From Heterodontus francisci (Eukaryota), in assembly GCF_036365525.1 (NCBI RefSeq), contig NC_090399.1:54158430-54222429 (forward strand): 64,000 bases of DNA. The letters run 5' to 3'. The notes under the pieces were generated by a model. It was not told the DNA's origin. It made no database searches and was given only the letters and a program-made list of their open reading frames with translations. Both the position numbers and the translations under genes were made by a program. Within the stretch, counting starts at the first letter, position 1. Each line of letters begins with the position of its first letter. Positions 7,340-40,639 of the stretch are shown here, one piece after another.

Positions 7340-7366
7340 CTCACTCATTATTTTTTGTGTTACAGG
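7340..7366 (+). other. Putative splice acceptor of the large ZNF exon (gene 1)
   Basis: ctcactcattattttttgtgttacag|gagtatc. Conserved in the other three units, with exon starts at 33842, 46159 and 58385. Confidence 0.6.
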
Positions 7367-7911
7367 AGTATCTCACCGTATTAAATCAGAGAATAGAGAG
7401 AGGATAGACACCACGCCCAACCAAGACCCGAGGAGATCCCGGACATCACCCCAGGAACAACTCCACAGAAAAAGCATCTCCAATAAATCTGATTGGTCAG
7501 GTGAAGTGAAACTGACCAGTATCCAGTGTCCAGTCAAAACCAACACTTCCATAGGTTTGGCTGTGGGATATCAGTCTGTCCAGGGGATGGAGGGAGTGTA
7601 ACGGGTGAGATTGGAGAGAAGTCTCTCAGGTTCCACAAGCACTGGTTTTCACACTGTCCTTGATGTTCCTGAAACACTGGAATATCCACTCAGGTGAAAG
7701 GTCATTCACATTGAGGGGCGTCAGGCCTGCTCCGAGTGTGAGGAGGGCTTTGAGTGTTCATTATACCTTGTGCAGCATTGGCAGATCCTGACAGGTGTCT
7801 GACGTTTGCAGAGGGCTTTATATGATTGTTGGACCTCCTCATCCACAGACGGTGAGAGTGTAGACAGTCTTAGTGACACCATTGTGTCTCCTGTAACACG
7901 AGGGCAGCCAC

Positions 7912-8016
7912 ATGGCAGAGAAAGCAATTGAATGTGGACAATTTGACGGAGTCTCTGCAAGTTCATCAGGCCCTGTGAATCCCCAAACCATCAACACAGA
8001 GGAGTGGTGGTTCTAG
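7912..8016 (+). other. 34-aa upstream ORF, probably a remnant of the ancestral N-terminus (MAEKAIECGQFDGVSASSSGPVNPQTINTEEWWF*)
   Basis: The ATG has a cacATGg context and the ORF ends at TAG in ttc-TAG-tgt-gaa-gtg-tgt, at the start of a finger. Paralogous uORFs lie at 34388-34492 and 46695-46799. Confidence 0.55.
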
Positions 8017-8200
8017 TGTGAAGTGTGTGAGAAGATCTTTGTACAGTTATCGTACCTGCTGAAACACCAACACACCCACACAGGGGAGAAACTGTTCAAA
8101 GTCGAGGTGTGTGACAAAACCGTCCCACCTCCTGGTCCATGAGAAAACCCACAAAGGGGAGAAACCCTTCACGTGTGACATTTGCAACAAAGGTTTTGCA

Positions 8201-11130: not shown

Positions 11131-11296
11131 GGGAATATTTCTGAAGGGGTTAGACTTGGTGAAAAATGAAATTGTAACCTGAGATTCCTTTAGACATGTG
11201 GGAGTGGAGGCCTGGATTTGTACAGTTCCTCTGAGGGAATGCTGTCCTGCAGAGGGGCAACACTGAGGGAGTGTTGCCTTGTTGGAAGTGCAGTAC

Positions 11297-12094
11297 ATAG
11301 GAACAGGAGTCGGCTATTTAGCCCCTCAAGCATGTTCCATCATTTAGTGAGATCATGGCGGATCTGTGATCTAACTCCATATACCTGCCCTTTCCCCATC
11401 TCTCTTAATACCTTTGGTTAACAAAAATCCCAGATTTAAAATTAACAATTGACCTGGCATCAATTTCATTTGTGGAAGAGAGTTCCAAATTTCTCACACC
11501 TTTTGTGTGTAGAAGAGTTTCCTGATTTCACTGGAAAGCCCTGGCTCTAATATTTAGGCTATGCCACCCAAGTCCAAGACTCCCCAACCAGTGGAAATAG
11601 TTTCTCTCTGTTCATCCTGTCTGTCCCTTAATATTTTGAAAACTGTGAACAAATCACCCCTCCACCTTCTGATGTCAAGGGAGTACAACCAGAGTTTGTT
11701 TAAACTCTTATACTCCTGTTATCATTCTAGTAAATCTATGCTGCACTCCCTGCAAGGCCTATCATTCCTAAGGTCTGGTGCCTGGTGCCCAGAACCACTC
11801 ACCGTAACTCCAGGAGTGGTCTAAACAGGGCTTTATATAGCTGAAGCATGACTTTTACCCCCTTGTATTCTCGTCAATTAGATATAAAGGCCAGCAGTCC
11901 ATTAGTCTTTTTGATTATTTTAATGATCTTTGTACCTGGAACTCCAAGTGTAATTGGACCCCACTGTTTCTAGCTTTTCAACATTTAGAAAATAGCCTGT
12001 TCTATCCTTTTTTGTCCAAAGTAGATGAACTCAGATTTATCTACATTGAAATCCATTTGCCACAGTTTTGTCCAGTGACTTCATCTATCAACAT
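11297..12094 (-). mobile_element. CR1 LINE 3' fragment
   Basis: Homologous to 50841-51835, whose minus strand gives MDFNVDQCEVIHLG (CR1 RT C-terminal region). It is interrupted by the LTR element at 12095. Confidence 0.7.
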
Positions 12095-15000
12095 TGTCAT
12101 GCCACAGTAAAGACATATATTCCTAATTTTAAGATACAAACTTTATTCAAAGTTGACTCTTTAAAATTGATTTTACCTTTTAAAAAAAAAAAGTGGCAAT
12201 ACTGAAAAAGATGGCCGGCAAAGGTGAGACAACTTGTTCTTGTGTATTATAACATCGCCTCACTGTCTGTTACGGACAAAAGAATATATTCCAGGCGAAC
12301 AGGTGTTAATTGCGCCCATCCTGAAACCATCAAGAGACTTTCCTGTATTGAATGGGTTCTTCTGAAACAAAGAAGGTGTGAAGGAGCCACATTATAACAG
12401 GACTATATTCGTCCAGAAATTCAGCCAAAATGAAGAAGGAGCCCTGCTGCAAATTCTACAATTCTACTTTGTGCAGCAGAGAACTGAAAGCCTAAAGTCT
12501 TAACCACCAGAAAACTACAGCCACCCAGGCCTGCAACTTTGTAAGAAACTGTCCTCCAGGAAGATTCAATAGGTTTGCCGTGAACCCCAAGCACCTACCT
12601 CACTTCAAACTACTTAGCCTTTTCCTCTCTATCTTTTTGTGGTGTGTGAGAACGTGAATGTGCGTGGGTGCAGCTGAGACCATCTTTTGTTTAACCTATG
12701 AGAAAACCTGTCATTTGCCTGTTTATTTGACCTTAAGCACACTCAAGTGCTAATTCATCATGTTCAAGTAAACACAATTGTAGCCAATTTCGAGGTGAAC
12801 GGCACAAACCACCCACATTCCTCAACCACCTTTCCACAACAAATTGGGGACTCGAAGCCAAGATTCTGAACAAATCAGACTAAACAAGAGATTTGGGAAA
12901 AGGGAAGAAAATTCACTTCTAAAACTGTGGGAAAATTGAAACAAAAGGTTTTCCCATATCAGTTTTTTCTTTGCAGTGCTAGAAACAGGAAATATGGCCA
13001 CATTTAATGCTAAATAGTTTATAGAGCAGTGAGACTTCTCCCATGATAGTTAAATTAAGTATTGCAGATTCTAAAAGCTTAGCTACTGAGGTAGGAGTCA
13101 CTTTCAAACAAAAGCAAAGAAATCTGAACGCTGCGGAGTCCAGCTAATCAATGTAAACTTACCCTGCAGCCCAAAAAAGAAAGCATGGAATCGGAGTCTG
13201 AGAAAATAGTCCTAGCTCGAATGCAGAAGGAAAGGGAGAAATTGCAGTTGAAAAAAGAAGAGATGCTGTTGAAAAGAGGAAATACAATTGCAGAGAAGAG
13301 ATGTCAAAGCAGAACAAATACCACAGTATTGGTAACAGGGCTTACTGGCAAATGCTTGAAGCTTCCCTCAGTTAAAGATTACTTACAGAGTAAGTGGGTC
13401 ACTGGTGTAGTAATGGGTGGGGTCATTCAGACCTTACCAATGCAGGGTGTTGACCTATTGCTGGGCAATGACTTTGCGGAAAGCACAGTATTATACCCAG
13501 AGGGTCCAGAGCAGTCCACGGAGACTGGAGAAACTGACAGGAACAAACAAAACTGCACAGCTGCAGAGGGCTGAGGAAGTCCCAAAAATCCCACAGGGAC
13601 TGTTAGTCTCTTTAACCTTTACTGGCCCGAAAGGAAAGCCAGTAGAATTTAAAAAGGCCACTACAGAGCCAAAGGCAAGTAAAAGAGCTGAGATTAAAGC
13701 AGCAGCGGTATGGTTAGCCAAAACCTTCTTCACAGATTTAAACAGGGACAGGAAAGTTGCCAAACAGGCAAGGCAAGAATGCCCCTCCCAGCTGAAGTGG
13801 AGTGCAGCAGAAGCTGGATAGCCACACATGAGCAGTAATGTCCCAGAGGACATAGGGCAGATTGGGGGAAATCCCATCCCCAAAATAAAGGGAAAAGGGA
13901 AGGTAATATGCCCTAAAGTAAACAGCACTTGTGAAAGCTACAAGAAAGGTAAAAGTGAGGCGGCTGTGGATTTGCCTACTGAAGAATCAAACACTCAGGT
14001 TCTGAATCCAAACCTAACCAAACCCAGCAATTTAGATTCAGAACTATTTCAGTACAAAGTGCCAGAGAACTCAGACCCTTACAGAGGCTAAAAAAAAAAC
14101 AGTTTACCACCCACTGTCACCCTAGAGATAAGAATTATCAATGTGCCAGAACCTGAACTAGAAAATCCATGTGTTGTGGATGCAGCAGTTCAGGGGTTAA
14201 GGCCTGTACAGGCAGTAAAATTTGTTAACAGCCAGGAACAATGCAGTAATGGAAATTTGCACATTACAAACCTTGGAACAGAACAACTGTCTCTACAACT
14301 GCCTGTAAAATTAAATCCCTTCAAGGACTCAAGTCTCTCAAAAAATACACGTCTATTGGTAATTAACACTCCCAAAGTACTGCAAGCAGATGCTTGAGAA
14401 ATCCAACACCATTCGACAACACATAACTGGGATTCAAAAGTGGGGAACGGATAGAAAGTGCTAAGTTTTCTAAATAAAAGCTTTCCTGGGGCAAAACTTC
14501 AACACCCAAAAAGGAAATTCAATTATAATTGTGGCCCATCCAAACTTGAACAAGAAATGGCTGTTGCAGACAATGCCAGTTCAGCAGTTGTAAAATTGAG
14601 GTTTGGATGATACAAGTGAGTGCAGAATGTGTGTTCATGTTTCTCTTACTTTGCTCTGTAAATAATGTAAAACTAATGTATCAAGATTTCATTTTGATTT
14701 CTTTTGTCAGGGGTGTGTCATGCCCAGTAAAGGCATATCAATTTCCTACTTTTAAGATACAAACTTTATTGAAGGTGTACTCTTTAAAATTGACATTACT
14801 TTTTTTTTAAAGTGGAAAATGCTGCAAAAGATGGCTGCTGTAGGTCAGATGACTGGGCCTTGTGTATTCGAACACTGCCTCACTGTATGTTAGGGACAAA
14901 AGGCTACATTCTAGGCTAAGAGGTTTCAATTACATCCATCCTGAAACCATCAAAAGACATTCCTGAATTGAATGGATTCTTCTGAAACAAAGGTGTGGAG

Positions 15001-15438
15001 TAGCCACATCACAGCAGGATGATATTCATCCAGACCTTAATGGATGGCCAAGGATTTCACATCCTGGTCCATTGTGTGGTAACACCAGGGGAGAGGGCCA
15101 AGCATCAACACAGAAAGACTCTAATCTGACGCCTTTTGACCTTAATAGGCAACCCTCTGGTGGGAGAAAGAGAGAGGGAGATCAGAAGAACACCACAGAA
15201 AAGCAGCCCAGCTAAGGGCTGTGAAGAGGACTCCAACAAAAACTAGGAAGGAGTCCTGCTGTGAATTCTACACTTCAACTTGGTGCAGCAGAGAACTGAA
15301 AGTGACCCGTTCTTCCAGTCTAAAGTCTTAACCACCTGCAACTTTTAAAGAAACAGTCCAACAAGAAGATTTAACAGGTTTACCATGAACACCGAAGATC
15401 TATCTCAGTTCAAACCACTTACCGTGTGCCTCTCTACT
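12095..15438 (+). mobile_element. Degenerate, internally deleted LTR retroelement (Gypsy-like)
   Basis: The 5' LTR runs from TGTCATG (12095) to ACAACA (12841) and is followed by PBS-like aaTTGGGGACTCG, which resembles the tRNA-Pro PBS TGGGGGCTCG. A second LTR starts with TGTCATG at 14716 after a short purine tract and is truncated near 15438. An internal ORF at 13185-13574 has a coiled-coil-like stretch and LPMQGVDLLLGND (gag/protease remnant). No RT or integrase was seen. Confidence 0.75.
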
Positions 15439-15454: not shown

Positions 15455-18400
15455 TATGAGTGTACTGAGGAAGCGCCGCATTGTTGGCGGGTCATTCCTG
15501 AGGGAGCGCCGCACGTTTGGAGGGTCAGTACGGAGAGAGCAGGGGATCGCCGCGCTGTCGGAGTATTGATGCTGAGGGAGGACTGCGATGTCGAAGGGTT
15601 GGTGCCGAGGGAGTGCCGCGCTGTCAGAGCATCGGTGCCAAGGGATCACTGCGCTTTCAGATCATTGGTGCCGAGGGAGCGCTGTGCTGTCACAGGATTG
15701 GTGCTGAGGGAGTGCCGCGCTGTTGGAGGGTCATGCTGAGAGAGCAGCGTGCTATCTGAGGAGGTCGGTGCCGAGGGAGCACCGCGCTGTCAGAGCATTG
15801 GGACCGAGGGAGTGCTGGAATGTTGACGAGGGTCATTACGTGGGAGCACCATGGTGTTGGAGAGTTGGTGCCGAGGGAGCGCCGAATCTTCGGAGGGTCA
15901 GTACTGAGGGAGTGCTGCACTGTCAGAAGATCAGTACTGAGGGAGTGCCACACTGTCGGAGGGTCGGTACCGAGGGAGTGCCGCACTGTCGGAGGGTCGG
16001 TACCGAGAGAGTATCGGATGGTCGGTACTGAGGGAGTGCCACACTGTCGGATGGTCGGTACTGAGGGAGTGCCACACTGTCGCAGGATCGGAACCAAGGG
16101 AGTGCCGCACCGTCGGAGGGTCGGTACCGAGGGAGTGCCGCTCCGTCGGAGGGTCGGTACCGAGGGAGAGCCGCACCGTCGGAGGGTCGGTACTGAGGGA
16201 GTGCCGCTCCGTCGGAGGGTCGGTACCGAGGGAGCGCCGCACCGTCGGAGAGTTGGTACCAAGGGACTGCCACACCATTGGAGGGTCGGTACCGATGGAG
16301 TGTCGCAGGGTCGGTACTGAGGGAGTGTCGCACTGTCGCAGGGTCTGTACCGAGGGAGTGTCGCACTGTCGGAGGGTCGATAGTGAAGGAGTGCCGCACA
16401 GTTGCAGGGTCGGTACTGAGGGAGTGCCGCACAATTGCAGGGTCAGTACTGAGGGAGTGCCGCACAGTCGCAGGGTCAGTACCGAGGGAGTGTCGCACTG
16501 CCGGTGAGTCGGTAGTGAGGGAGTGCCGCACAGTCGCAGGGTCAGTACCGAGGGGGTGCCGCACAGTCGCAAGGTCAGTACTGAGGGAGTGCCGCACTGT
16601 TGGAGGGTCGGTAGTAAGGGAGTGCCTCACTGTCGTAGGGTCAGTACCGAGGGAGTGTCGCACAGTCGCAGGGTCAGTACCGAGGGAGTGCTGCACTGTC
16701 GGAGGGTCAGTACTGAGGGAGTGCCGCAGGGTCAGTACCAAGGGAGTGCCGCACTATCGCAGGGTCAGTACCAAGGGAGTGTCGCACTGTCGGAAGGTCG
16801 GAAGTGAGGGAGTGCCGCACTGTCGCAGGGTCAGTACTGAGGGAGTGTCGCACTGTTGCAGGGTCAGTACTGAGGGAGTGCCGCACAGTTGCAGGGTCAG
16901 AACTGAGGGAGTGCCGCACTGTCTCAGGGTCAGTATTGAGGTAGTGCCGCACCGTCGGAGGGTCGGTACCAAGGGAGCGCAGCACCGTCGGAGGGTCGGT
17001 ACCGAGGGAGCGCAGCACCGCCACAGGCTCGGTACTGAGTGAGTGCCGCACCGTCGCAGGGTCAGTAGTGAGGATGTGCCGCGCCATCGGAAGGTCGGAA
17101 CTGAGGGAGTGCTGCACTGTGGGAAGGTCGGTACTGAGAGAGTGCTGCACTGTCGGAGGGTCGGTACTGAGAGAGTGCTGCACTGTCGGAAGGTCGGTAC
17201 TGAGAGAGTGCTGCACTGTCGGAAGGTCGGTACTGAGAGAGTACTGCACTGTGGGAAGGTCGGTACTGAGAGAGTGCTGCACTGTCGGAAGGTCGGTACT
17301 GAGAGAGTGCTGCACTGTGGGAAGGTCGGTACTGAAAGAGTGCTGCACTGTGGGAAGGTCGGTACTCGGAGTGCTGCACTGTCGGAAGGTCGGTACTGAG
17401 AGAGTGCTGCACTGTGGGAAGGTCGGTACTGAGAGAGTGCTGCACTGTCGGAAGGTTGGTACTCGGAGTGCTGCACTGTCGGAAGGTCGGTACTCGGAGT
17501 GCTGCACTGTCGGAAGGTCGGTACTGAGAGAGTGCTGCACTGTCGGAAGGTTGGTACTCGGAGTGCTGCACTGTCGGAAGGTCGGTACTCTGAGTGCTGC
17601 ACTGTCGGAAGGTCGGTACTCGGAGTGCTGCAATGTCGGAAGGTCGGTACTGAGAGAGTACTGCACTGTGGGAAGGTCGGTACTGAGAGAGTGCTGCACT
17701 GTCGGAAGGTCGGTACTGAGAGAGTGCTGCACTGTCGGAAGGTTGGTACTCGGAGTAGTGCACTGTCGGAAGGTCGGTACTCGGAGTGCTGCACTGTCGG
17801 AAGGTCGGTACTCGGAGTGCTGCACTGTCGGAAGGACGGTACTGAGAGAGTGCTGCACTGTCGTAAGGTCGGTACTGAGAGAGTACTGCACTGTCGGAAG
17901 GTCGGTACTGAAAGAGTGCTGCACTGTCGGAAGGTCGGAACTGAGGGAGTGCTGCACTGTCGGAAGGTCGGTACTGAGAGAGTGCTGCACTGTGGGAAGG
18001 TCGGTACTGAGAGAGTGCTGCACTGTGGGAAGGTCGGTACTCGGAGTGCTGCACTGTCGGAAGGTCGGTACTGAGAGAGAGCTGCGCTGTCGGAAGGTCG
18101 GTACTGAGAGAGTGCTGCACTGTTGGAGGGTCGGTACTGAGAGAGTGCTGCACTGTGGGAAGGTCGGTACTGAGAGAGTGCTGCACTGTCGGAAGGTCGG
18201 TACTGAGAGAGTACTGCACTGTCGGAAGGTCGGTACTGAGAGAGTGCTGCACTGTCGGAGGGTCGGTACTGAGAGAGTGCTACACTGTCGGAAGGTCGGT
18301 ACTGAGAGAGTGCTGCACTGTCGGAGGGTCGGTACTGAGAGAGTGCTGCACTGTCGGAAGGTTGGTACTGAGAGAGTGCTGCACTGTCGGAAGGTGGGTA

Positions 18401-21400
18401 CTGAGAGAGTGCTGCACTGTGGGAAGGTCGGAACTGAGGGAGTGCTGCACTGTGGGAAGGTCGGTACTCGGAGTGCTGCACTGTCGGAAGGTCGGTACTG
18501 AGAGAGTGCTGTGCTGTCGGAAGGTCGGTACTGAGAGAGTGCTGCACTGTCAGAAGGTCGGTACTGAGAGAGTGCTGCACTGTCGGAAGGTCGGTACTGA
18601 GAGAGTGCTGCACTGTCAGAAGGTCGGTACTGAGAGAGTGCTGCACTGTCGGAAGGTCGGTACTGAGAGAGTGCTGCACTGTCGGAAGGTCGGTACTGAG
18701 AGAGTGCTGCACTGTGGGAAGGTCGGTACTGAGAGAGTGCTGCACAGTGGGAAGGTCGGTACTGAGAGAGTGCTGCACTGTCGGAAGGTCGGTACTCGGA
18801 GTGCTGCACTGTCGGAAGGTCGGTACTGAGAGAGTGCTGCACTGTCGGAAGGTCGGTACTGAGAGAGTGCTGTACTGTGGGAAGGTCGGTACTGAGAGAG
18901 TGCTGCACTGTGGGAAGGTCGGTACTGAGAGAGTGCTGCACTGTCGGAAGGTTGGTACTCGGAGAGCTGCACTGTCGGAAGGTCGGTACTCGGAGTGCTG
19001 CACTGTCGGAAGGTCGGTACTCGGAGTGCTGCACTGTCGGAAGGTCGGTACTGAGAGAGTACTGCACTGTCGGAAGGTCGGTACTGAGAGAGTGCTGCAC
19101 TGTGGGAAGGTCGGTACTGAGAGAGTGCTGCACTGTGGGAAGGTCGGTACTGAGAGAGTGCTGCACTGTGGGAAGGTCGGTACTGAGAGAGTGCTGCACT
19201 GTGGGAAGGTCGGTACTCGGAGTGCTGCACTGTCAGAAAGTCGGTACTGAGAGAGTGCTGCACTGTGGGAAGGTCGGTATTCGGAGTGCTGCACTGTCGG
19301 AAGGTCGGTACTGAGAGAGTGCTGCACTGTGGGAAGGTCGGTACTCGGAGTGCTGCACTGTCGGAAGGTCGGTACTGAGAGAGTGCTGCACTGTCAGAAA
19401 GTCGGTACTGAGAGAGTGCTGCACTGTGGGAAGGTCGGTACTGAGAGAGTGCTGCACTGTGGGAAGGTCGGTACTCGGAGTGCTGCACTGTCGGAGGGTC
19501 GGTACTGAGAGAGTGCTGCACTGTCGGAAGGTCGGTACTGAGAGAGTGCTGCACTGTCAGAAAGTCGGTACTGAGAGAGTGCTGCACTGTCGGAAGGTCG
19601 GTACTCGGAGTGCTGCACTGTCGCAGGGTCGGTACTGAGAGAGTGCTGCACTGTGGGAAGGTCGGTACTGAGAGAGTGCTGCACTGTCGGAGGGTCGGTA
19701 CTGAGAGAGTGCTGCACTGTCGGAAGGTCGGTACTGAGAGAGTGCTGCACTGTCGGAAGGTCGGTACTGAGAGAGTGCTGCACTGTCGGAAGGTCGGTAC
19801 TGAGAGAGGTTGGTACTGAGAGAGTGCTGCACTGTCGGAAGGTCGGTACTCGGAGTGCTGCACTGTCGGAAGGTCGGTACTGAGAGAGTGCTGCACTGTC
19901 GGAAGGTCGGTACTGAGAGAGTGCTGCACTGTCGGAAGGTCGGTACTGAGAGAGTGCTGCACTGTCGGAAGGTCGGTACTCGGAGTGCTGCACTGTCGGA
20001 AGGTCGGAACTGAGAGAGTGCTGCACTGTCGGAAGGTCGGTACTGAGAGAGTGCTGCACTGTCGGAAGGTCGGTACTCGGAGTGCTGCACTGTCGGAAGG
20101 TCGGCACTGAGAGAGTGCTGCGCTGTCGGAAGGTCGGTACTGAGAGAGTGCTGCACTTTCGGAAAGTCAGTACTCGGAGTGCTGCACTGTGGGAAGGTCG
20201 GTACTGAGAGAGTGCTGCACTTTCGGAAAGTCAGTACTCGGAGTGCTGCACTGTCGGAAGGTCGGTACTGAGAGAGTGCTGCACTGTGGGAAGGTCGGTA
20301 CTGAGAGAGTGCTGCACTTTCGGAAAGTCAGTACTCGGAGTGCTGCACTGTCGGAAGGTCGGTACTCGGAGTGCTGCACTGTCGGAGGGTCGGTACTGAG
20401 AGAGTACTGCACTGTGGGAAGATCAGTACTGAGAGAGTGCTGCACTGTGGGAAGTTCGGTACTGAGAGAGTGCTGCACTGTCGGAAGGTCGGTACTGAGA
20501 GAGTGCTGCACTGTCGGAAGGTCGGTACTCGGAGTGCTGCACTGTCGGAAGGTCGGTACTGAGAGAGTGCTGCGCTGTCGGAAGGTCGGGACACGGAGTG
20601 CTGCACGGTCGGAGGGTCGGTACTGAGAGAGTGCTGCACTGTCGGAAGGTCGGTACTCGGAGTGCTGCACTGTCGGAAGGTCGGTTCTGAGAGAGTGCTG
20701 CGCTGTCGGAAGGTCGGGACTCGGAGTGCTGCACTGTGGGAAGGTCGGTACTGAGAGAGTGCTGCACTGTCGGAAGGTCGGTACTCGGAGTGCTGCACTG
20801 TCGGAAGGTCGGTACTGAGAGAGTACTGCACTGTCGGAAGGTCGGTACTGAGAGAGTGCTGCACTTTCGGAAAGTCAGTACTCGGAGTGCTGCACTGTCG
20901 GAGGGTCGGTACTGAGAGAGTACTGCACTGTCGGAAGGTCGGTACTGAGAGAGTGCTGCACTGTCGGAAGGTCGGTACTGAGAGAGTGCTGCACTGTCGG
21001 AAGGTCGGTACTGAGAGAGTGCTGCACTGTGGGAAGGTCGGTACTGAGAGAGTGCTGCACTGTGGGAAGGTCGGTACTGAGAGAGTGCTGCACTTTCGGA
21101 AAGTCAGTACTCGGAGTGCTGCACTGTGGGAAGGTCGGTACTGAGAGAGTGCTGCACTGTGGGAAGGTCGGTACTGAGAGAGTGCTGCACTTTCGGAAAG
21201 TCAGTACTCGGAGTGCTGCACTGTCGGAAGGTCGGTACTGAGAGAGTGCTGCACTGTCGGAAGGTCGGTACTGAGAGAGTGCTGCACTTTCGGAAAGTCA
21301 GTACTCGGAGTGCTGCACTGTCGGAGGGTCGGTACTCGGAATGCTGCACTGTCGGAGGGTCGGTACTGAGAGAGTACTGCACTGTGGGAAGATCGGTACT

Positions 21401-24400
21401 GAGAGAGTGCTGCACTGTCGGAAGGTCGGTACTGAGAGAGTGCTGCACTTTCGGAAAGTCAGTACTCGGAGTGCTGCACTGTCGGAAGGTCGGTACTCGG
21501 AGTGCTGCACTTTCGGAAGGTCGGTACTGAGAGAGTACTGCACTGTGGGAAGATCGGTACTGAGAGAGTGCTGCACTGTGGGAAGGTCGGTACTGAGAGA
21601 GTGCTGCACTGTCGGAAGGTCGGTACTGAGAGAGTGCTGCACTGTCGGAAGGTCGGTACTGAGAGAGTGCTGCACTGTCGGAAGGTCGGTACTGAGAGAG
21701 TGCTGCACTGTCGGAAGGTCGGTACTCGGAGTGCTGCACTGTCAGAAGGTCGGTACTGAGAGAGTGCTGCACTGTCGGAAGGTCGGTACTGAGAGAGTGC
21801 TGCACTGTCGGAAGGTCGGTACTCGGAGTGCTGCACTGTCGGAAGGTCGGCACTGAGAGAGTGCTGCGCTGTCGGAAGGTCGGTACTGAGAGAGTGCTGC
21901 ACTTTCGGAAAGTCAGTACTCGGAGTGCTGCACTGTCGGAGGGTCGGTACTGAGAGAGTACTGCACTGTCGGAAGGTCGGTACTGAGAGAGTGCTGCACT
22001 ATCGGAAGGTCGGTACTGAGAAAGTGCTGCACTGTCGGAAGGTCGGTACTGAGAGAGTGCTGCACTGTGGGAAGGTCGGTACTGAGTGAGTGCTGCACTG
22101 TGGGAAGGTCGGTACTGAGAGAGTGCTGCACTTTCGGAAAGTCAGTACTCGGAGTGCTGCACTGTTGGAAGGTCGGTACTGAGAGAGTGCTGCACTGTCG
22201 GAAGGTCGGTACTGAGAGAGTGCTGCACTTTCGGAAAGTCAGTACTCGGAGTGCTGCACTGTCGGAGGGTCGGTACTGAGAGAGTACTGCACTGTGGGAA
22301 GATCAGTACTGAGAGAGTGCTGCACTGTGGGAAGGTCGGTACTGAGAGAGTGCTGCACTGTCGGAAGGTCGGTACTGAGAGAGTGCTGCACTGTCGGAAG
22401 GTCGGTACTCGGAGTGCTGCACTGTCGGAAGGTCGGTACTGAGAGAGTGCTGCGCTGTCGGAAGGTCGGGACTTGGAGTGCTGCACGGTCGGAGGGTCGG
22501 TACTGAGAGAATGCTGCACTGTCGGAAGGTCGGTACTCGGAGTGCTGCACTGTCGGAAGGTGGGTACTGAGAGAGTGCTGCGCTGTCGGAAGGTCGGGAC
22601 TCGGAGTGCTGCACTGTGGGAAGGTCGGTACTGAGAGAGTGCTGCACTGTCGGAAGGTCGGTACTGAGAGAGTGCTGCACTTTCGGAAAGTCAGTACTCG
22701 GAGTGCTGCACTGTCGGAGGGTCGGTACTGAGAGAGTACTGCACTGTCGGAAGGTCGGTACTGAGAGAGTGCTGCACTGTCGGAAGGTCGGTACTGAGAG
22801 AGTGCTGCACTGTCGGAAGGTCGGTACTGAGAGAGTGCTGCACTGTGGGAAGGTCGGTACTGAGAGAGTGCTGCACTGTGGGAAGGTCGGTACTGAGAGA
22901 GTGCTGCACTTTCGGAAAGTCAGTACTCGGAGTGCTGCACTGTGGGAAGGTCGGTACTGAGAGAGTGCTGCACTGTGGGAAGGTCGGTACTGAGAGAGTG
23001 CTGCACTTTCGGAAAGTCAGTACTCGGAGTGCTGCACTGTCGGAAGGTCGGTACTGAGAGAGTGCTGCACTGTCGGAAGGTCGGTACTGAGAGAGTGCTG
23101 CACTTTCGGAAAGTCAGTACTCGGAGTGCTGCACTGTCGGAAGGTCGGTACTCGGAATGCTGCACTGTCGGAGGGTCGGTACTGAGAGAGTACTGCACTG
23201 TGGGAAGATCGGTACTGAGAGAGTGCTGCACTGTCGGAAGGTCGGTACTGAGAGAGTGCTGCACTGTCGGAAGGTCGGTACTGAGAGAGTGCTGCACTGT
23301 CGGAAGGTCGGTACTCGGAGTGCTGCACTGTCGGAAGGTCGGTACTGAGAGAGTGCTGCGCTGTCGGAAGGTCGGGACTCGGAGTGCTGCACGGTCGGAG
23401 GGTCGGTACTGAGAGAGTGCTGCACTGTCGGAAGGTCGGGACTCGGAGTGCTGCACTGTGGGAAGGTCGGTACTGAGAGAGTGCTGCACTGTCGGAAGGT
23501 CGGTACTCGGAGTGCTGCACTGTCGGAAGGTCGGTACTGAGAGAGTGCTGCACTGTGGGAAGGTCGGTACTGAGAGAGTGCTGCACTGTCGGAAGGTCGG
23601 GACTCGCAGTGCTGCACGGTCGGAGGGTCGGTACTGAGAGAGTGCTGCACTGTCGGAAGGTCGGGACTCGGAGTGCTGCACTGTCGGAAGATCGGTACTG
23701 AGAGAGTGCTGCACTGTCGGAAGGTCGGTACTGAGAGAGTGCTGCACTGTCGGAAGGTCGGGACTCGGAGTGCTGCACGGTCGGAAGGTCGGTACTGAGA
23801 GAGTGCTGCACTGTCGGAAGGTCGGTACTCGGAGTGCTGCACTGTCGGAAGGTCGGTACTGAGAGAGTGCTGCGCTGTCGGAAGGTCGGGACTCGGAGTG
23901 CTGCACGGTCGGAGGGTCGGTACTGAGAGAGTGCTGCACTGTCGGAAGGTCGGTACTCGGAGTGCTGCACTGTCGGAAGGTCGGTACTGAGAGAGTGCTG
24001 CGCTGTCGGAAGGTCGGGACTCGGAGTGCTGCACTGTGGGAAGGTCGGTACTGAGAGAGTGCTGCACTGTCGGAAGGTCGGTACTCGGAGTGCTGCACTG
24101 TCGGAAGGTCGGTACTGAGAGAGTACTGCACTGTCGGAAGGTCGGTACTGAGAGAGTGCTGCACTTTCGGAAAGTCAGTACTCGGAGTGCTGCACTGTCG
24201 GAGGGTCGGTACTGAGAGAGTACTGCACTGTCGGAAGGTCGGTACTGAGAGAGTGCTGCACTGTCGGAAGGTCGGTACTGAGAGAGTGCTGCACTGTCGG
24301 AAGGTCGGTACTGAGAGAGTGCTGCACTGTGGGAAGGTCGGTACTGAGAGAGTGCTGCACTGTGGGAAGGTCGGTACTGAGAGAGTGCTGCACTTTCGGA

Positions 24401-27400
24401 AAGTCAGTACTCGGAGTGCTGCACTGTGGGAAGGTCGGTACTGAGAGAGTGCTGCACTGTGGGAAGGTCGGTACTGAGAGAGTGCTGCACTTTCGGAAAG
24501 TCAGTACTCGGAGTGCTGCACTGTCGGAAGGTCGGTACTGAGAGAGTGCTGCACTGTCGGAAGGTCGGTACTGAGAGAGTGCTGCACTTTCGGAAAGTCA
24601 GTACTCGGAGTGCTGCACTGTCGGAAGGTCGGTACTCGGAATGCTGCACTGTCGGAGGGTCGGTACTGAGAGAGTGCTGCACTGTCGGAAGGTCGGGACT
24701 CGGAGTGCTGCACTGTCGGAAGGTCGGTACTGAGAGAGTGCTGCACTGTCGGAAGGTCGGTACTGAGAGAGTGCTGCACTGTCGGAAGGTCGGGACTCGG
24801 AGTGCTGCACGGTCGGAAGGTCGGTACTGAGAGAGTGCTGCACTGTCGGAAGGTCGGTACTCGGAGTGCTGCACTGTCGGAAGGTCGGTACTGAGAGAGT
24901 GCTGCGCTGTCGGAAGGTCGGGACTCGGAGTGCTGCACGGTCGGAGGGTCGGTACTGAGAGAGTGCTGCACTGTCGGAAGGTCGGTACTCGGAGTGCTGC
25001 ACTGTCGGAAGGTCGGTACTGAGAGAGTGCTGCGCTGTCGGAAGGTCGGGACTCGGAGTGATGCACTGTGGGAAGGTCGGTACTGAGAGAGTGCTGCACT
25101 GTCGGAAGGTCGGTACTCGGAGTGCTGCACTGTCGGAAGGTCGGTACTGAGAGAGTACTGCACTGTCGGAAGGTCGGTACTGAGAGAGTGCTGCACTTTC
25201 GGAAAGTCAGTACTCGGAGTGCTGCACTGTCGGAGGGTCGGTACTGAGAGAGTGCTGCACTGTCGGAAGGTCGGTACTCGGAGTGCTGCACTGTCGGAAG
25301 GTCGGTACTGAGAGAGTGCTGCGCTGTCGGAAGGTCGGGACTCGGAGTGCTGCACGGTCGGAGGGTCGGTACTGAGAGAGTGCTGCACTGTCGGAAGGTC
25401 GGTACTCGGAGTGCTGCACTGTCGGAAGGTCGGTACTGAGAGAGTGCTGCGCTGTCGGAAGGTCGGGACTCGGAGTGCTGCACTGTGGGAAGGTCGGTAC
25501 TGAGAGAGTGCTGCACTGTCGGAAGGTCGGTACTCGGAGTGCTGCACTGTCGGAAGGTCGGTACTGAGAGAGTACTGCACTGTCGGAAGGTCGGTACTGA
25601 GAGAGTGCTGCACTTTCGGAAAGTCAGTACTCGGAGTGCTGCACTGTCGGAGGGTCGGTACTGAGAGAGTACTGCACTGTCGGAAGGTCGGTACTGAGAG
25701 AGTGCTGCACTGTCGGAAGGTCGGTACTGAGAGAGTGCTGCACTGTCGGAAGTTCGGTACTGAGAGAGTGCTGCACTGTGGGAAGGTCGGTACTGAGAGA
25801 GTGCTGCACTGTGGGAAGGTCGGTACTGAGAGAGTGCTGCACTTTCGGAAAGTCAGTACTCGGAGTGCTGCACTGTGGGAAGGTCGGTACTGAGAGAGTG
25901 CTGCACTGTGGGAAGGTCGGTACTGAGAGAGTGCTGCACTTTCGGAAAGTCAGTACTTGGAGTGCTGCACTGTCGGAAGGTCGGTACTGAGAGAGTGCTG
26001 CACTGTCGGAAGGTCGGTACTGAGAGAGTGCTGCACTTTCGGAAAGTCAGTACTCGGAGTGCTGCACTGTCGGAAGGTCGGTACTCGGAATGCTGCACTG
26101 TCGGAGGGTCGGTACTGAGAGAGTGCTGCACTGTCGGAAGGTCGGGACTCGGAGTGCTGCACTGTCGGAAGGTCGGTACTGAGAGAGTGCTGCACTGTCG
26201 GAAGGTCGGTACTGAGAGAGTGCTGCACTGTCGGAAGGTCGGGACTCGGAGTGCTGCACGGTCGGAAGGTCGGTACTGAGAGAGTGCTGCACTGTCAGAA
26301 GGTCGGTACTCGGAGTGCTGCACTGTCGGAAGGTCGGTACTGAGAGAGTGCTGCACTGTCGGAAGGTCGGTACTCGGAGTGCTGCACTGTCGGAAGGTCG
26401 GTACTGAGAGAGTGCTGCGCTGTCGGAAGGTCGGGACTCGGAGTGATGCACTGTGGGAAGGTCGGTACTGAGAGAGTGCTGCACTGTCGGAAGGTCGGTA
26501 CTCGGAGTGCTGCACTGTCGGAAGGTCGGTACTGAGAGAGTACTGCACTGTCGGAAGGTCGGTACTGAGAGAGTGCTGCACTTTCGGAAAGTCAGTACTC
26601 GGAGTGCTGCACTGTCGGAGGGTCGGTACTGAGAGAGTACTGCACTGTCGGAAGGTCGGTACTGAGAGAGTGCTGCACTGTCGGAAGGTCGGTACTGAGA
26701 GAGTGCTGCACTGTCGGAAGGTCGGTACTGAGAGAGTGCTGCACTGTGGGAAGGTCGGTACTGAGAGAGTGCTGCACTGTGGGAAGGTCGGTACTGAGAG
26801 AGTGCTGCACTTTCGGAAAGTCAGTACTCGGAGTGCTGCACTGTCGGAAGGTCGGTACTGAGAGAGTGCTGCACTGTGGGAAGGTCGGTACTGAGAGAGT
26901 GCTGCACTTTCGGAAAGTCAGTACTCGGAGTGCTGCACTGTCGGAAGGTCGGTACTGAGAGAGTGCTGCACTGTCGGAAGGTCGGTCCTGAGAGAGTGCT
27001 GCACTTTCGGAAAGTCAGTACTCGGAGTGCTGCACTGTCGGAAGGTCGGTACTCGGAATGCTGCACTGTCGGAGGGTCGGTACTGAGAGAGTACTGCACT
27101 GTGGGAAGATCGGTACTGAGAGAGTGCTGCACTGTCGGAAGGTCGGTACTGAGAGAGTGCTGCACTTTCGGAAAGTCAGTACTCGGAGTGCTGCACTGTC
27201 GGAAGGTCGGTACTCGGAGTGCTGCACTGTCGGAAGGTCGGTACTGAGAGAGTACTGCACTGTGGGAAGATCGGTACTGAGAGAGTGCTGCACTGTGGGA
27301 AGGTCGGTACTGAGAGAGTGCTGCACTGTCGGAAGGTCGGTACTGAGAGAGTGCTGCACTGTCGGAAGGTCGGTACTCGGAGTGCTGCACTGTCGGAAGG

Positions 27401-29146
27401 TCGGTACTGAGAGAGTGCTGCGCTGTCGGAAGGTCGGGACTCGGAGTGCTGCACGGTCGGAGGGTCGGTACTGAGAGAGTGCTGCACTGTCGGAAGGTCG
27501 GGACTCGGAGTGCTGCACTGTCGGAAGGTCGGTACTGAGAGAGTGCTGCACTGTCGGAAGGTCGGTACTCGGAGTGCTGCACTGTCGGAAGGTCGGTACT
27601 GAGAGAGTGCTGCACTGTCGGAAGGTCGGTACTGAGAGAGTGCTGCACTGTCGGAAGGTCGGGACTCGGAGTGCTGCACGGTCGGAGGGTCGGTACTGAG
27701 AGAGTGCTGCACTGTCGGAAGGTCGGTACTCGGAGTGCTGCACTGTCGGAAGGTCGGGACTCGGAGTGCTGCACTGTGGGAAGGTCGGTACTGAGAGAGT
27801 GCTGCACTGTCGGAAGGTCGGTACTCGGAGTGCTGCACTGTCGGAAGGTCGGTACTGAAAGAGTACTGCACTGTCGGAAGGTCGGTACTGAGAGAGTGCT
27901 GCACTTTCGGAAAGTCAGTACTCGGAGTGCTGCACTGTCGGAGGGTCGGTACTGAGAGAGTGCTGCACTGTCGGAAGGTCGGTACTGAGAGAGTGCTGCA
28001 CTGTGGGAAGGTCGGTACTGAGAGAGTGCTGCACTTTCGGAAAGTCAGTACTCGGAGTGCTGCACTGTGGGAAGGTCGGTACTGAGAGAGTGCTGCACTG
28101 TGGGAAGGTCGGTACTGAGAGAGTGCTGCACTTTCGGAAAGTCAGTACTCGGAGTGCTGCACTGTCGGAAGGTCGGTACTGAGAGAGTGCTGCACTGTCG
28201 GATGGTCGGTACTGAGAGAGTGCTGCACTTTCGGAAAGTCAGTACTCGGAGTGCTGCACTGTCGGAAGGTCGGTACTCGGAATGCTGCACTGTCGGAGGG
28301 TCGGTACTGAGAGACTACTGCACTGTGGGAAGATCGGTACTGAGAGAGTGCTGCACTGTGGGAAGGTCGGTACTGAGAGAGTGCTGCACTGTCGGAAGGT
28401 CGGTACTGAGAGAGTGCTGCACTGTCGGAAGGTCGGTACTCGGAGTGCTGCACTGTCGGAAGGTCGGTACTGAGAGAGTGCTGCGCTGTCGGAAGGTCGG
28501 GACTCGGAGTGCTGCACGGTCGGAGGGTCGGTACTGAGAGAGTGCTGCACTGTCGGAAGGTCGGGACTCGGAGTGCTGCACTGTGGGAAGGTCGGTACTG
28601 AGAGAGTGCTGCACTGTCGGAAGGTCGGTACTCGGAGTGCTGCACTGTCGGAAGGTCGGTACTGAGAGAGTGCTGCACTGTGGGAAGGTCGGTACTGAGA
28701 GAGTGCTGCACTGTCGGAAGGTCGGGACTCGGAGTGCTGCACGGTCGGAGGGTCGGTACTGAGAGAGTGCTGCACTGTCGGAAGGTCGGGACTCGGAGTG
28801 CTGCACTGTCGGAAGGTCGGTACTGAGAGAGTGCTGCACTGTCGGAAGGTCGGTACTGAGAGAGTGCTGCACTGTCGGAAGGTCGGGACTCGGAGTGCTG
28901 CACGGTCGGAGGGTCGGTACTGAGAGAGTGCTGCACTGTCGGAAGGTCGGGACTCGGAGTGCTGCACTGTCGGAAGGTCGGTACTGAGAGAGTGCTGCAC
29001 TGTCGGAAGGTCGGTACTGAGAGAGTGCTGCACTGTCGGAAGGTCGGTACTGAGAGAGTGCTGCACTGTCGGAAGGTCGGTACTGAGAGAGTGCTGCACT
29101 GTCGGAAGGTCGGTACTCGGAGTGCTGCACTGTCGGAGGGACTGTG
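15455..29146 (+). repeat. 33/31-bp CpG-rich minisatellite, ~13.7 kb (about 420 units), directly upstream of the gene 2 promoter
   Basis: Units GTCGGTACTGAGAGAGTGCTGCACTGTCGGAAG (33 bp) and GTCGGTACTCGGAGTGCTGCACTGTCGGAAG (31 bp). The array is degenerate at the left end and homogeneous at the right. Confidence 0.97.
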
Positions 29147-29474
29147 AAATGTTTTGGAACATCCTGTATATATGAAAGTTCTTGCTCCTTCTCTCCTTTA
29201 TTTCTCATCACTGACATTGACTGGATTGAATAATCTCAAAGTAACAAAACACCAAGAGGAGGTCCGGCCCTCTCCACTGTGAATGGCTGAGTGGATTGAT
29301 TGACATGGGAGCAGACGACTAACATTTTTAGGATGGGTGGCTTTCGATGTCCCTGAGCTACTCATTGGTTGTGGGAGATGTCAGTCAGAGAAGCCAACCA
29401 ATCGGCTCTTTTCCTCCTCTTCCTCTTTCGCAGCTGGTTGATTTCCTGATCGGGATTGAAAAACAAGTGAGACG
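29147..29474 (+). promoter_or_regulatory. Putative promoter and non-coding exon 1 of gene 2
   Basis: Contains ATTGG and CCAATC boxes and an ETS-like TTCCTG, and ends at a GACG|GTGAGT donor. Homologous to 41917-42212 and 55146-55425. Confidence 0.65.
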
Positions 29475-30780
29475 GTGAGTAAAGGAGCAGAGTTTGTACA
29501 GATTGTATCCCATAATATCCACACTAATGTTCAGGACTGAATATCCAGTGAGTGACGGAGCAGAGTTTGTACAGATTGTATCCCATAATATCCACACTAA
29601 TGTTCAGGACTGAATATCCAGTGAGTGACGGAGCAGAGTTTGTACAGATTGTATCCCATAATATCCACACTAATGTTCAGGACTGAATATCCAGTGAGTG
29701 ACGGAGCAGAGTTTGTACAGATTGTATCCCATAATATCCACACTAATGTTCAGGACTGAATATCCAGTGAGTGACGGAGCAGAGTTTGTACAGATTGTAT
29801 CCCATAATATCCACACTAATGTTCAGGACTGAATATCCAGTGAGTGACGGAGCAGAGTTTGTACAGATTGTATCCCATAATATCCACACTAATGTTCAGG
29901 ACTGAATATCCAGTGAGTGACGGAGCAGAGTTTGTACAGATTGTATCCCATAATATCCACACTAATGTTCAGGACTGAATATCCAGTGAGTGACGGAGCA
30001 GAGTTTGTACAGATTGTATCCCATAATATCCACACTAATGTTCAGGACTGAATATCCAGTGAGTGACGGAGCAGAGTTTGTACAGATTGTATCCCATAAT
30101 ATCCACACTAATGTTCAGGACTGAATATCCAGTGAGTGACGGAGCAGAGTTTGTACAGATTGTATCCCATAATATCCACACTAATGTTCAGGACTGAATA
30201 TCCAGTGAGTGACGGAGCAGAGTTTGTACAGATTGTATCCCATAATATCCACACTAATGTTCAGGACTGAATATCCAGTGAGTGACGGAGCAGAGTTTGT
30301 ACAGATTGTATCCCATAATATCCACACTAATGTTCAGGACTGAATATCCAGTGAGTGACGGAGCAGAGTTTGTACAGATTGTATCCCATAATATCCACAC
30401 TAATGTTCAGGACTGAATATCCAGTGAGTGACGGAGCAGAGTTTGTACAGATTGTATCCCATAATATCCACACTAATGTTCAGGACTGAATATCCAGTGA
30501 GTGAAGGAGCAGAGTTTGTACAGATTGTATCCCATAATATCCACACTAATGTTCAGGACTGAATATCCAGTGAGTGAAGGAGCAGAGTTTGTACAGATTG
30601 TATCCCATAATATCCACACTAATGTTCAGGACTGAATATCCAGTGAGTGAAGGAGCAGAGTTTGTACAGATTGTATCCCATAATATCCTCACTAATGTTC
30701 AGGACTGAATATCCAGTGAGTAAAGGAGCAGAGTTTGTACAGATTGTATCCCATAATATCCTCACTAATGTTCAGGACTG
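29475..30780 (+). repeat. 73-bp tandem array (~18 copies) starting at the donor GT of gene 2 intron 1
   Basis: Same unit as 1-6980, including a long run of apparently identical GTGACGG-variant copies. Confidence 0.97.
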
Positions 30781-32875: not shown

Positions 32876-33259
32876 CACGCTCAATAATCTCACTAAAACT
32901 AACAGGTGTTAGATTTCCTGGGAACAGTGGGTTATTCCTCACATACTGTTAGAACTGTGGACAAACAATATAACTCCGATGAGTTAATGAAAGTAGAATG
33001 GTTAATAAGCAGTACTGATTGAAGACAATGTATTAAGATGTCTATTCCAGCTGGTACCTGGGTCTTTACCACGTTTCACAGCTTCAGGAACCCAGACACA
33101 AAGACAACACTGACACCTGCAGCTCTAACTAGTTACCACTTTAAATCAAATCAAACTTCCAGGCTGCAGCTTCGAGTGGGAAAAGCATTCTGTTCACAGC
33201 CTTGGGACTTAACCTCTTAGGAACTGAATCTAGTACAACAGAAATATTCTAAGTTATTG

Positions 33260-33655
33260 TCAGCCGTGGTTTAGTTAACACTCTCACCTCGGAGTCAGAA
33301 GGTTGTGGGTTTAAGGCCCATTCCAGAGATTTGAGCACTGAGGCTGACACTCCAGTGCAGTACTGAGGGTGTTAAACTGAGGCTCCCTCTGTCCACTCAG
33401 GTGGACATAAAAGATCACAGGGCACTATTTCAAAGAGCAGGGGAGTTATCCCCGGGATCCTGGTCAATATTTATCCCTCAATCAACATCACAAAAACAGA
33501 TTAGCTGGTCATTATCACATTGCTGTTTGTGGGATCTTGCTGTGTACAAATTGACTGCTGCATTTCCAACATGAAAGCAGTGACTGCATTTCAATTGGCT
33601 TTCAAGTGTTTAGGGACATCTGGTGATCATGAAAGGTGCTATATCAATGCAATTC
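33260..33655 (+). mobile_element. tRNA-derived Deu-domain SINE (SacSINE1-like)
   Basis: A tRNA-like head (cagccgtggtttagtt...ggagtcagaaggttgtgggtttaag) is followed by a Deu-like core (gttaaactgagg...caggtggacataaaagatc...ggcactatttc...gagcaggggagtt). The family was recognised from memory. Confidence 0.7.
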
Positions 33656-34595
33656 TTCCATGAGCTATAAAGAAATCCAACACAGGCAATCCAGGCAAAA
33701 TCCATTGATCCACATTTACTGCCCCCACAGTTCAGTAACCTGCTGACCCTCCTTGGACACCAGTCTCCCAGTGAGGGGTCAGCACCTTCAGAGATGGCAG
33801 AGAATCGGAGGAAACTCACTCATTATTTTATTGTGTTACAGGAGTATCTCACCGTATTAAATCAGAGAATAGAGAGTGGATAGACACCGCACCCAGCCAA
33901 GACCCGAGGAGATCCCGGACATCACCCCAGGGACAACTCCACAGAAAAAGCATCTGCAATAAATCTGATTGGTCAGGAGAAGTGAAATTGACCAGTGTCC
34001 TGCGTCTAATCAAAACCAAAGCTTCCATCAGTTTGGCTGTGGGATATCAGTCTGTCCAGGAGATGGAGGGATTGTAACGGGTGAGTTTGGAAAGAAGTCT
34101 CTCAGGTTCCACAAGCAGTGGTTTTCACACAGTCATTGGTGTTCCTGAAACACTGGAACATCCACTCAGATGAAAGGTCATTCACAGTGAGGGACGTAAG
34201 GACTGCTCAGACCGTGACGAGGACTTTGAGTGTTCATTATACCTTGTGATGCATTGGCAGATCCTGACAGGTGTCTGACATTTGCTGAGGGCTTTATATG
34301 ATTGTTGGACCTCCTCATCCACAGATGGTGAGAGTGTAGACAGTCTTAGTGACACCATTGTGTCTCCTGTAACACGAGAGCAGCCACATGACAGAGAAAA
34401 CAATTGAATGTGGACAATTTGACGGAGTCTCTGCGAGGTCATCAGGCCCTGTGAATCCTCAATCCACCAACACAGAGGAGAGGTGGTTCTAGTGTGAAGT
34501 GTGTGAGAAGACCTGCGTACGGTTATCGTACCTCCTGAAACACCAACACACCCACACGGGAGAAACTGTTCATTTGCGAGGTGTGTGACAGAACA

Positions 34596-34950
34596 GGGCG
34601 GCACAGTGGCGCAGTGGTTAGCACCGCAGCCTCACAGCTCCAGGGACCTGGGTTCAATTCTGGGTACTGCCTGTGCGGAGTTTGCAAGTTCTCCCTGTGT
34701 CTGCGTGGGTTTCCTCCGGGTGCTCCGGTTTCCTCCCACATGCCAAAGACTTGCAGGTTGATAGGTAAATTGGCTGTTATAAATTGCCCCTAGTATTGGT
34801 AGGTGGTAGGGAAATATATAGGTACAGGTGGGAATGTGGTAGGAATATGGGATTAGTGTAGGATTAGTATAAATGGGTAGTTGATGGTCGGCACAGACTC
34901 GGTGGGCCGAAGGGCCTGTTTCAGTGCTGTATCTCTAAACTAAACTAAAC
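34596..34950 (+). mobile_element. HE1-type V-SINE inserted in the decayed 5' fingers of gene 2
   Basis: tRNA-derived head with A- and B-box-like motifs, V domain tgcgtgggtttcctccgggtgctccggtttcctcccaca, and a (TAAAC)3 tail. The empty site gacaaaacattctctc is present at 59131. Confidence 0.88.
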
Positions 34951-35041
34951 ATTCTCTCAATCATCCCACCACCTGGTCCATCAGAGAACCCACACAGGGG
35001 AGAAACCCTTCACGTGTGACATTTGCAACAAAGCTTTCCTA

Positions 35042-40605: not shown

Positions 40606-40639
40606 GTTTACCCCTGGAGGGACATCACCACTTATGAAT

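Follow-up and report, generated by a model that had tools for sequence, protein, structure and literature searches.

What do two tandem arrays do on either side of a zinc-finger promoter? The question is raised by a 64-kb stretch of the shark Heterodontus francisci (64,000 nucleotides; NCBI RefSeq assembly GCF_036365525.1, contig NC_090399.1, positions 54,158,430 to 54,222,429 of the forward strand), called the window here and numbered from its first nucleotide. It holds four head-to-tail C2H2 zinc-finger cassettes, and in genes 2–4 a putative promoter with a short exon 1 lies between an upstream array of a 33/31-bp unit and a downstream array of a 73-bp unit. An initial annotation had suggested that the sizes of the two arrays vary together, and that the arrays might tune expression, drive amplification of the genes or be bound by the encoded proteins. 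Our analysis favours a plainer answer: the two unrelated minisatellites are probably passengers of a tandemly duplicated cassette, one expanding privately at its locus and the other homogenised by gene conversion, with the agreement of their size ranks mostly due to chance.

Organization of the cassettes

The distance from stop to stop is 11.5 kb between genes 2 and 3, 12.5 kb between genes 3 and 4, and 27 kb across the array of gene 2. An exon-2 acceptor is common to genes 1–4 (7365, 33841, 46158 and 58384), and an exon-1 donor (exon end GAGACG, intron start GTGAGT) to genes 2–4 (29474, 42212 and 55425), with a 73-mer array starting at each donor. The segment between the 33-mer and 73-mer arrays is 290–340 bp long and homologous in the three genes. 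The sandwich of 33-mer, promoter with exon 1, and 73-mer was confirmed in genes 2–4 by coordinates and homology, and both arrays occupy homologous positions, as expected of fixed parts of the duplicated cassette; a repeat block accompanies every gene copy, gene 1 included. The statement that the junctions are the same in each unit held for the three inner junctions of genes 2–4 but not for the outer 5' junction of the 33-mer, which differs in all three: the array of gene 2 abuts a truncated long terminal repeat (LTR), that of gene 3 follows a different insert, and that of gene 4 is interrupted and displaced.

These relations suggest that a zinc-finger cassette of roughly 12–13 kb was duplicated in tandem and brought both minisatellites along, the 33-mer having perhaps by chance been situated before the ancestral promoter. 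All array lengths are those of one assembled sequence, and where units are identical the arrays may be mis-sized. The term variable number tandem repeat (VNTR), used initially, implies variation between individuals, while the present data are a single sequence.

The 73-mer array at the exon-1 donor

The 73-mer arrays are the following, all on the forward strand.
1–6982: gene 1, 95.6 copies (at least 95, since the array reaches the window edge), with multi-unit block duplications
29475–30780: gene 2, 17.9 copies, starting at the exon-1 donor
42213–42794: gene 3, 8.0 copies
55426–55569: gene 4, a pair of units (2.0 copies)

The copy numbers given initially (at least 95, about 18, about 8 and 2) match these arrays. 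In the gene 1 array a block of 34 units is duplicated and six units carry one inserted nucleotide; the 3' end of this array is joined through a deletion directly to the 3' half of a short interspersed element (SINE) of the intron.

The internal junctions of the arrays end in CA in 119 of 119 cases and the exons in CG in three of three, and the terminal units depart from the consensus beyond about +65 to +71. Most simply, the 73-mer would have arisen in place by tandem duplication of the segment from -2 to +71 around the exon-1 donor, followed by a change of the final exon CG to CA in the internal copies. This change would remove the -1 G of the internal donors, so that only the first donor would stay strong.

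A different origin would be from RNA: a rolling-circle complementary DNA of the lariat loop of a short intron, from donor G to branch A, would have recombined into the gene, and the same route would have served among the paralogues. The unit starts 0–2 nt from the donor G and ends in A, genes 3 and 4 have a pyrimidine-rich stretch with TTCAG some 20 nt beyond their last unit, and the homogenised region fits the unit closely, all of which a lariat would explain. The unit boundary nevertheless represents a single event, gene 2 no longer has the AG, a deletion has removed it from gene 1, and the junction is explained more simply by a DNA duplication from -2 to +71 plus one CG-to-CA change. We regard the lariat origin as most improbable.

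The evidence for homogenisation comes from the identity profile along the cassette. First units are 94.5–98.6% identical between genes, versus 78–84% for the promoters and 75–79% for the downstream flank (Fisher p from 1e-4 to 0.014). Five of the eight variant types found in genes 2–4 recur in gene 1, where variants were counted by alignment (p 2.5e-5; three of six and p 0.002 when sites 7 and 9 are left out). Because the synonymous divergence of the genes is 0.11–0.25, the flanks look neutral and the 73-mer looks homogenised. The donor-anchored, homogenised 73-mer is the part of the locus most worth following.

Some further features of the 73-mer were noticed. An ATG at position 53 of each unit opens 28 codons across the unit junction, and in each unit of the gene 2 array (29475–30780) a CACTAAT resembling a branch point lies some 20 nt ahead of the junction AG. 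The pyrimidine-rich stretch with TTCAG lies at 42796–42815 in gene 3 and 55570–55591 in gene 4; judged from its sequence, this TTCAG is possibly the acceptor of an ancestral intron of about 92 nt. Two candidate identities of the unit were rejected: a structured RNA such as a tRNA or snoRNA (no Rfam matches, no tRNAs, folding z of 0.35 and -0.76) and an origin elsewhere in the window (best scores 27–28 against a null of 24–30).

The 33/31-mer array

The upstream arrays and the SINE-related segments connected with them, all on the forward strand, are the following.
15460–17092: old, heterogeneous part of the gene 2 33-mer, 50 units, mean pairwise divergence 0.24
17093–29138: young gene-specific burst of the gene 2 33/31-mer, 373 units in two variants, with kilobase-scale block repeats, reaching the promoter side
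40636–41909: gene 3 33-mer array, 41 old, heterogeneous units, 1274 bp
51838–52045 and 53100–53467: gene 4 33-mer array in two pieces (7 and 12 units, 576 bp) around a 1.05-kb insert
11230–11300: relic of about two 33-mer units in a 3' spacer, with paralogous copies near 38740–38800 and 50775–50850
29139–29178: SINE-like 3' tail capping the gene 2 33-mer, with homologues at 41910–41950 and 53468–53506
33256–33665: internally deleted tRNA-type SINE of intron 1, with a paralogue at 57786–58210

The spans initially reported for genes 2 and 3, 13.7 kb (423 units) and 1.3 kb, stood, while the approximately 0.6 kb of gene 4 consists of two pieces separated by an insert (52046–53099) that had gone unmentioned. 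The gene 2 array is composed of 50 old units covering 1.63 kb and 373 young ones covering 12.0 kb, and the old cores of genes 2 and 3 are of similar length (1.63 and 1.27 kb). At 17093 the nearest-neighbour distance between units drops from 3–4.5 to under 0.7. Within the young block neighbours are near-identical, exact repeats of up to 639 bp occur at kilobase lags, and pairwise divergence is 0.08 (371 units), versus 0.24–0.25 in the short old blocks. The 31-mer variant forms 119 of the 371 young units and none of the 95 old units of genes 2–4, units shorter than 31 nt having been dropped from these counts. When the old arrays were compared unit by unit for collinearity between genes, the observed scores were reached by 9, 200 and 56 of 200 shuffles. 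The 33-mer therefore appears to change size within each locus, by a single recent promoter-side burst of 12 kb in gene 2 and by chopping through insertions in gene 4. An insertion is present at or near the 5' part of all three arrays.

The description of the 33-mer as CpG-rich applies to gene 2 (observed/expected ratio 0.86–0.88) and partly to gene 3 (0.59), but not to gene 4 (0.25–0.38, with a background of 0.19–0.26). In the old units the CpG columns have decayed mainly to TG and CA, and since this decay follows established chemistry, the 33-mer has probably been methylated in the germ line.

A tie of the 33-mer to zinc-finger genes was not supported. A translated search with the 33-mer found four proteins among 4152 candidates, three of them named zebra-shark models. 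LOC132208561 and LOC132207865 start with the same 11-residue repeat in about nine units (E 7.6e-22 and 2.6e-12), and the C-terminus of LOC132208561 matches dystrophin (E 5e-22); for neither model is a precomputed Pfam domain or a finger domain listed. Because it is found in zebra-shark models that encode dystrophin-like fragments, the 33-mer is not specific to zinc-finger genes. Within the window, too, the relics in the spacers score 24.6–29.3 bits, versus a null maximum of 16.8, and are remote from any promoter. The cluster of LOC132208561 has 46 member sequences and may be another amplified family with a 33-mer repeat. The open reading frames (ORFs) of the 33-mer were rejected as real proteins (protein-atlas recognition 900, no family) and served solely as repeat probes. 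Homologue searches with the repeat gave two matches at first and 1359 among representative sequences, mostly of low identity; the 1359 were left out of account. The bacterial and archaeal genomes scanned contained no exact 22-nt match.

The source of the 33-mer may lie in a SINE. The tail of the gene 2 array is identical to the tail of the intronic SINE at 27 of 37 positions, and the scores of the array tails of genes 2, 3 and 4 were reached by 0, 6 and 1 of 500 shuffles, respectively; this match of about 37 nt is short and discontinuous with the 33-mer unit. A 15-nt stretch of the intronic SINE, situated beside a deletion, matches the 33-mer at 14 positions, a result reached by 22 of 500 shuffles. 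The SINE tail also matches four dispersed repeat ends on the reverse strand (0, 1, 0 and 0 of 300 shuffles). No SINE head was found at the left ends of the 33-mer arrays (114, 342 and 18 of 500 shuffles). The intronic SINE is presumably SacSINE1-like, and the shark SacSINE1 consensus may contain one 33-mer unit. Altogether the 33-mer would be a repeat dispersed in sharks that probably arose by growth of a SINE segment and has the SINE-like tail as its cap.

Exchange between paralogues and amplification of the cluster

Elsewhere in the cassettes, paralogues share tracts of 97–99% identity over 350–740 bp, with partners that change along the cassette. This patchwork suggests that conversion is common in the cluster, and gene conversion between paralogues would keep the 73-mer near-identical in the same way as the other cassette patches. 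When the arrays were masked, none of the 31 near-identical tracts of at least 120 bp lay within 200 bp of a promoter-flanking array.

This distribution bears on the proposal that the arrays amplified the gene family by unequal crossover. The arrays recur once per cassette, the deletion in gene 1 ends in a 73-mer, and the 73-mer variants common to paralogues indicate that these arrays do exchange sequence, as the proposal would have it. Amplification driven by the arrays is still not favoured, because not one of the 31 tracts lies near them; in addition, old 33-mer units differ from one another by about 24%, the young 33-mer variants of gene 2 are private, and divergence between paralogues peaks in the sequence immediately bordering the 73-mer. 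We consider this role of the arrays distinctly improbable.

Array sizes and instability around the promoter

The two arrays do rank alike in size in genes 2–4, as initially noted, but with three units such a match has a chance probability of 1/6, and the co-variation is weak for this reason. The matching ranks are mostly chance, or at most go back to a common local propensity for expansion close to the promoter.

Some observations weigh against reading the arrays as independent passengers. Selection on the 73-mer would produce the same identity peak as conversion, and the edges of the peak drop sharply. The old 33-mer blocks drift toward the consensus on the promoter side (rho -0.20, -0.26 and -0.43, none significant singly); the combined p of 0.005, which is post hoc and not from independent tests, hints at a promoter-linked process. 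As to the SINE origin of the 33-mer, the 14-of-15-nt stretch is the only match in the window between unit and SINE, and the arrays lack a SINE head.

The drift could be explained if the promoter were a recombination hotspot or a transcription-linked break site, causing polarised expansion on both sides with size co-variation as a neutral by-product. All three old blocks drift the same way, in gene 2 the young block extends up to the unit next to the promoter and the opposite end of the array has degenerated, and the 13 identical 73-mers of gene 2 are promoter-proximal. Yet only three units can be compared, the young block shows no internal polarity (rho -0.01), the promoters are the least homogenised segments, and gene 3, which has the most intact promoter, has no burst, whereas gene 2 has lost its GC box and ETS motif. 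Such promoter-centred instability seems rather unlikely to us. A third minisatellite with a 34-bp unit (50083–50732, 19.4 copies) occupies the 3' spacer of gene 3, where it replaces about 300 bp of the other spacers; arrays therefore arise here away from promoters too.

The promoter segment and its possible regulation by the arrays

The segments between the arrays, all on the forward strand, are the following.
29179–29474: putative promoter and short exon 1 of gene 2, with CCAAT boxes at 29364 and 29398 and changes in both GC box and ETS motif
41910–42212: tail, putative promoter and exon 1 of gene 3, GC box at 42033, CCAAT at 42051, 42108 and 42142, ETS motifs at 42160 and 42182
55138–55425: putative promoter and exon 1 of gene 4, GC box at 55233, CCAAT at 55312 and 55346, ETS motif at 55389

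An inverted and a forward CCAAT box lie exactly 34 bp apart in genes 2–4, and no TATA box was found in the three segments. The GC box and the ETS-type motif (30–36 nt before the donor) are intact in genes 3 and 4, and each has one change in gene 2. The same combination of motifs under relaxed definitions occurred in two of 709 overlapping background windows, and the segment looks like a real promoter on this comparison. We assume from the motifs that NF-Y, Sp1 and ETS factors are involved. Transcription is predicted to start 30–60 nt before the donor. The CpG observed/expected ratio of the segments is 0.23–0.46, and being CpG-poor they are not CpG islands. Gene 2, with its giant array and a SINE in the coding exon, also has the GC box, the distal CCAAT position and the ETS motif mutated (29172–29474); a relaxed constraint could have preceded the array expansion in this gene.

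Direct contact of the arrays with a promoter-like segment makes it conceivable that array length tunes expression, the CpG-bearing 33-mer setting promoter methylation and each extra 73-mer adding a weak donor and a short upstream ORF. Each 73-mer does carry a GTGAGT donor core and the ATG with its 28 codons, and in humans VNTRs close to promoters can be linked to expression and methylation (bioRxiv 2020.12.16.423078). This is unlikely all the same: all 119 internal donors lack the -1 G, gene 4 has kept its promoter motifs though its 33-mer has moved 1.6 kb away, and the 5' fingers are broken in all four genes, with 6–12 upstream ATGs.

Binding of the arrays by the zinc-finger proteins themselves, as autoregulation, was likewise examined. 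The last four fingers are conserved, with a pN/pS near 0.2 (nonsynonymous to synonymous divergence), and many zinc-finger proteins target satellites (PMC10547256). When a crude recognition code was applied to three shared fingers, five to six of eight positions matched, which 1010–1985 of 2000 shuffles also reached; the test is weak either way, and the claim of self-binding gained nothing from it. We hold self-binding to be very unlikely.

A still more elaborate proposal combines several of these elements. The 73-mer would be a working splice-donor-anchored array, uniform throughout the zinc-finger family and possibly templated by a lariat, whose copy number sets the amount of productive mRNA through competing weak donors with upstream ORFs, and a promoter-centred break site would co-expand the methylatable 33-mer, giving a fast-mutating control with two dials. 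There is little likelihood of this, but if true, it would allow the members of a transcription-factor family to be tuned rapidly and paralogue by paralogue.

The zinc-finger genes

The coding exons are the following, all on the forward strand.
7366–9253: gene 1 exon 2, its 5' fingers decayed, followed by an ORF at 8201–9253 with 12 C2H2 fingers
33842–36403: gene 2 exon 2, a second SINE near 34600–34950, then an ORF at 35042–36403 with 14 intact fingers
46159–47862: gene 3 exon 2, an ORF at 46978–47862 with 10 fingers
58385–60363: gene 4 exon 2, its 5' fingers disrupted by frameshifts and stops, and an ORF at 59542–60363 with nine fingers

The ORFs matched Pfam zf-C2H2 and zf-H2C2_2 and encode arrays of 9–14 C2H2 fingers joined by linkers of the TGEKP type. 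Between the paralogues the four C-terminal fingers are conserved, and the last 114 codons have a pN of 0.03–0.05 and a pS of 0.11–0.25. An older, longer frame is broken in all four genes, by a stop in genes 1–3, by frameshifts and by the SINE in gene 2. The four genes are truncated genes or young pseudogenes. No KRAB match was obtained in Pfam scans of the four finger ORFs (the introns were not scanned in six frames), and no N-terminal effector domain was detected in these genes. Among the 120 matches listed for the gene 3 protein the best is from Scyliorhinus canicula with 58% identity, which is uninformative on orthology. The gene 2 fingers at 35640–35830 are an internal copy of N-terminal fingers of the KVEVC/FTCDIC type, and an in-frame loss of 42 nt is located near 35510 of the same gene. 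The 3' region of gene 4 (60950–64000) has been replaced by other repeats, and no AATAAA or ATTAAA lies within 2.5 kb of its stop, unlike in genes 1–3.

Comparison with known systems

The human Kruppel zinc-finger cluster at 19p12 is interspersed with beta-satellite blocks (Eichler et al. 1998, pmid 9724325, cited in PMC3018141 and PMC2671837). The present cluster resembles it in having tandem zinc-finger genes interspersed with tandem-repeat blocks. The 19p12 monomer is 68 bp (PMC2671837), as against 33/31 and 73 bp here, and in contrast to 19p12 the two arrays here touch the promoter and the first donor, with no KRAB in the scanned ORFs. The ZAV macrosatellite lies beside ZFP37, and SST1 arrays lie around the chromosome 19 cluster (PMC3018141). 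The ZAV/ZFP37 pair is similar in that the array lies less than 2 kb from a zinc-finger gene and has been proposed to be regulatory, but ZAV and SST1 are macrosatellites beside or around genes, whereas here minisatellites are repeated in each cassette. By analogy the shark cassettes appear to work like the 19p12 cluster and the ZAV/ZFP37 pair while belonging to neither.

Clustered, fast-turnover C2H2 genes in repeat-rich regions are also found in the zebrafish FZNF family of chromosome 4q (PMC10547256); the shark genes differ from families of this type in yielding no sign of an N-terminal effector domain. That paper does not use the words shark, chondrichthyan or cartilaginous in its main text.

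Among repeats, the SINE-derived satellites of squamates (sSats, PMC10702118) likewise combine a tandem array with a SINE-like terminal stretch, and their long arrays are more homogeneous than the short ones, as here (0.08 versus 0.24–0.25). They differ from the present case, in which the tail match is about 37 nt long and discontinuous and the unit matches the SINE at 14 of 15 nt. In the SacSINE1/Deu-SINE elements of sharks (PMC5499810, PMC3747384) the 3' tail is common to a long interspersed element (LINE), and here the tail of the intronic SINE recurs at other repeat ends; 'tandem' and 'minisatellite' are absent from the main text of the SacSINE1 paper (PMC5499810). The human eVNTRs and mVNTRs (bioRxiv 2020.12.16.423078) are promoter-proximal arrays as here, though defined there by population and expression data. 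Polarised human minisatellites (PMC2599865) show the one-ended turnover which a promoter-centred break site would resemble. In sharks, simple tandem repeats abound on small chromosomes and at chromosome ends (bioRxiv 2022.10.17.512540; bioRxiv 2025.06.08.657570).

The arrays are a shark variant of known repeat-bearing zinc-finger clusters. No description of them was met in the literature on shark SINEs, minisatellites and zinc-finger clusters, where coverage was thin for subscription journals, and three short array motifs had no match in a full-text literature search.

If the arrays are indeed passengers, the locus clearly illustrates how two minisatellites 300 bp from each other can evolve in contrary ways, one confined to its own locus, the other common to the paralogues. 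SINE-derived satellites, described for squamates, may then exist in sharks, which would be useful for repeat annotation. The locus would also be a warning that gene models take in the 33-mer; in the zebra-shark entries it is annotated as coding before dystrophin-like fragments. Views of zinc-finger clusters would remain unchanged.

Other insertions and repeats

Two further elements were delimited next to the 33-mer arrays.
53507–55137, reverse strand: Penelope-like element of gene 4, flanked by an 8-bp target duplication and located in the tail that separates array from promoter
12095–15436, forward strand: degraded element with two LTRs, the second cut short at the start of the gene 2 33-mer

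The insertion said to separate the 33-mer of gene 4 from its promoter is present, measures 1.63 kb and looks Penelope-like. Its ORF reached a protein-atlas score of 0.95 to GIY-YIG/HTH_animal clusters; direct Pfam scans of the element found nothing relevant, and the reverse transcriptase part is presumed. The element at 12095–15436 we take to be of the LTR type from its anatomy. It has a primer-binding-like site near 12845, and two internal ORFs had no Pfam match.

The inserts at 39833–40630 and 52046–53099 are related (68% identity over about 300 bp, the latter, 1.05 kb long, matching 39833–40128), and reached the 33-mer arrays of genes 3 and 4 in separate events, the former lying just ahead of its array and the latter within it. 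The second SINE family is represented by copies at 34600–34940, inside the coding exon of gene 2, and at 42893–43217, in opposite orientations.

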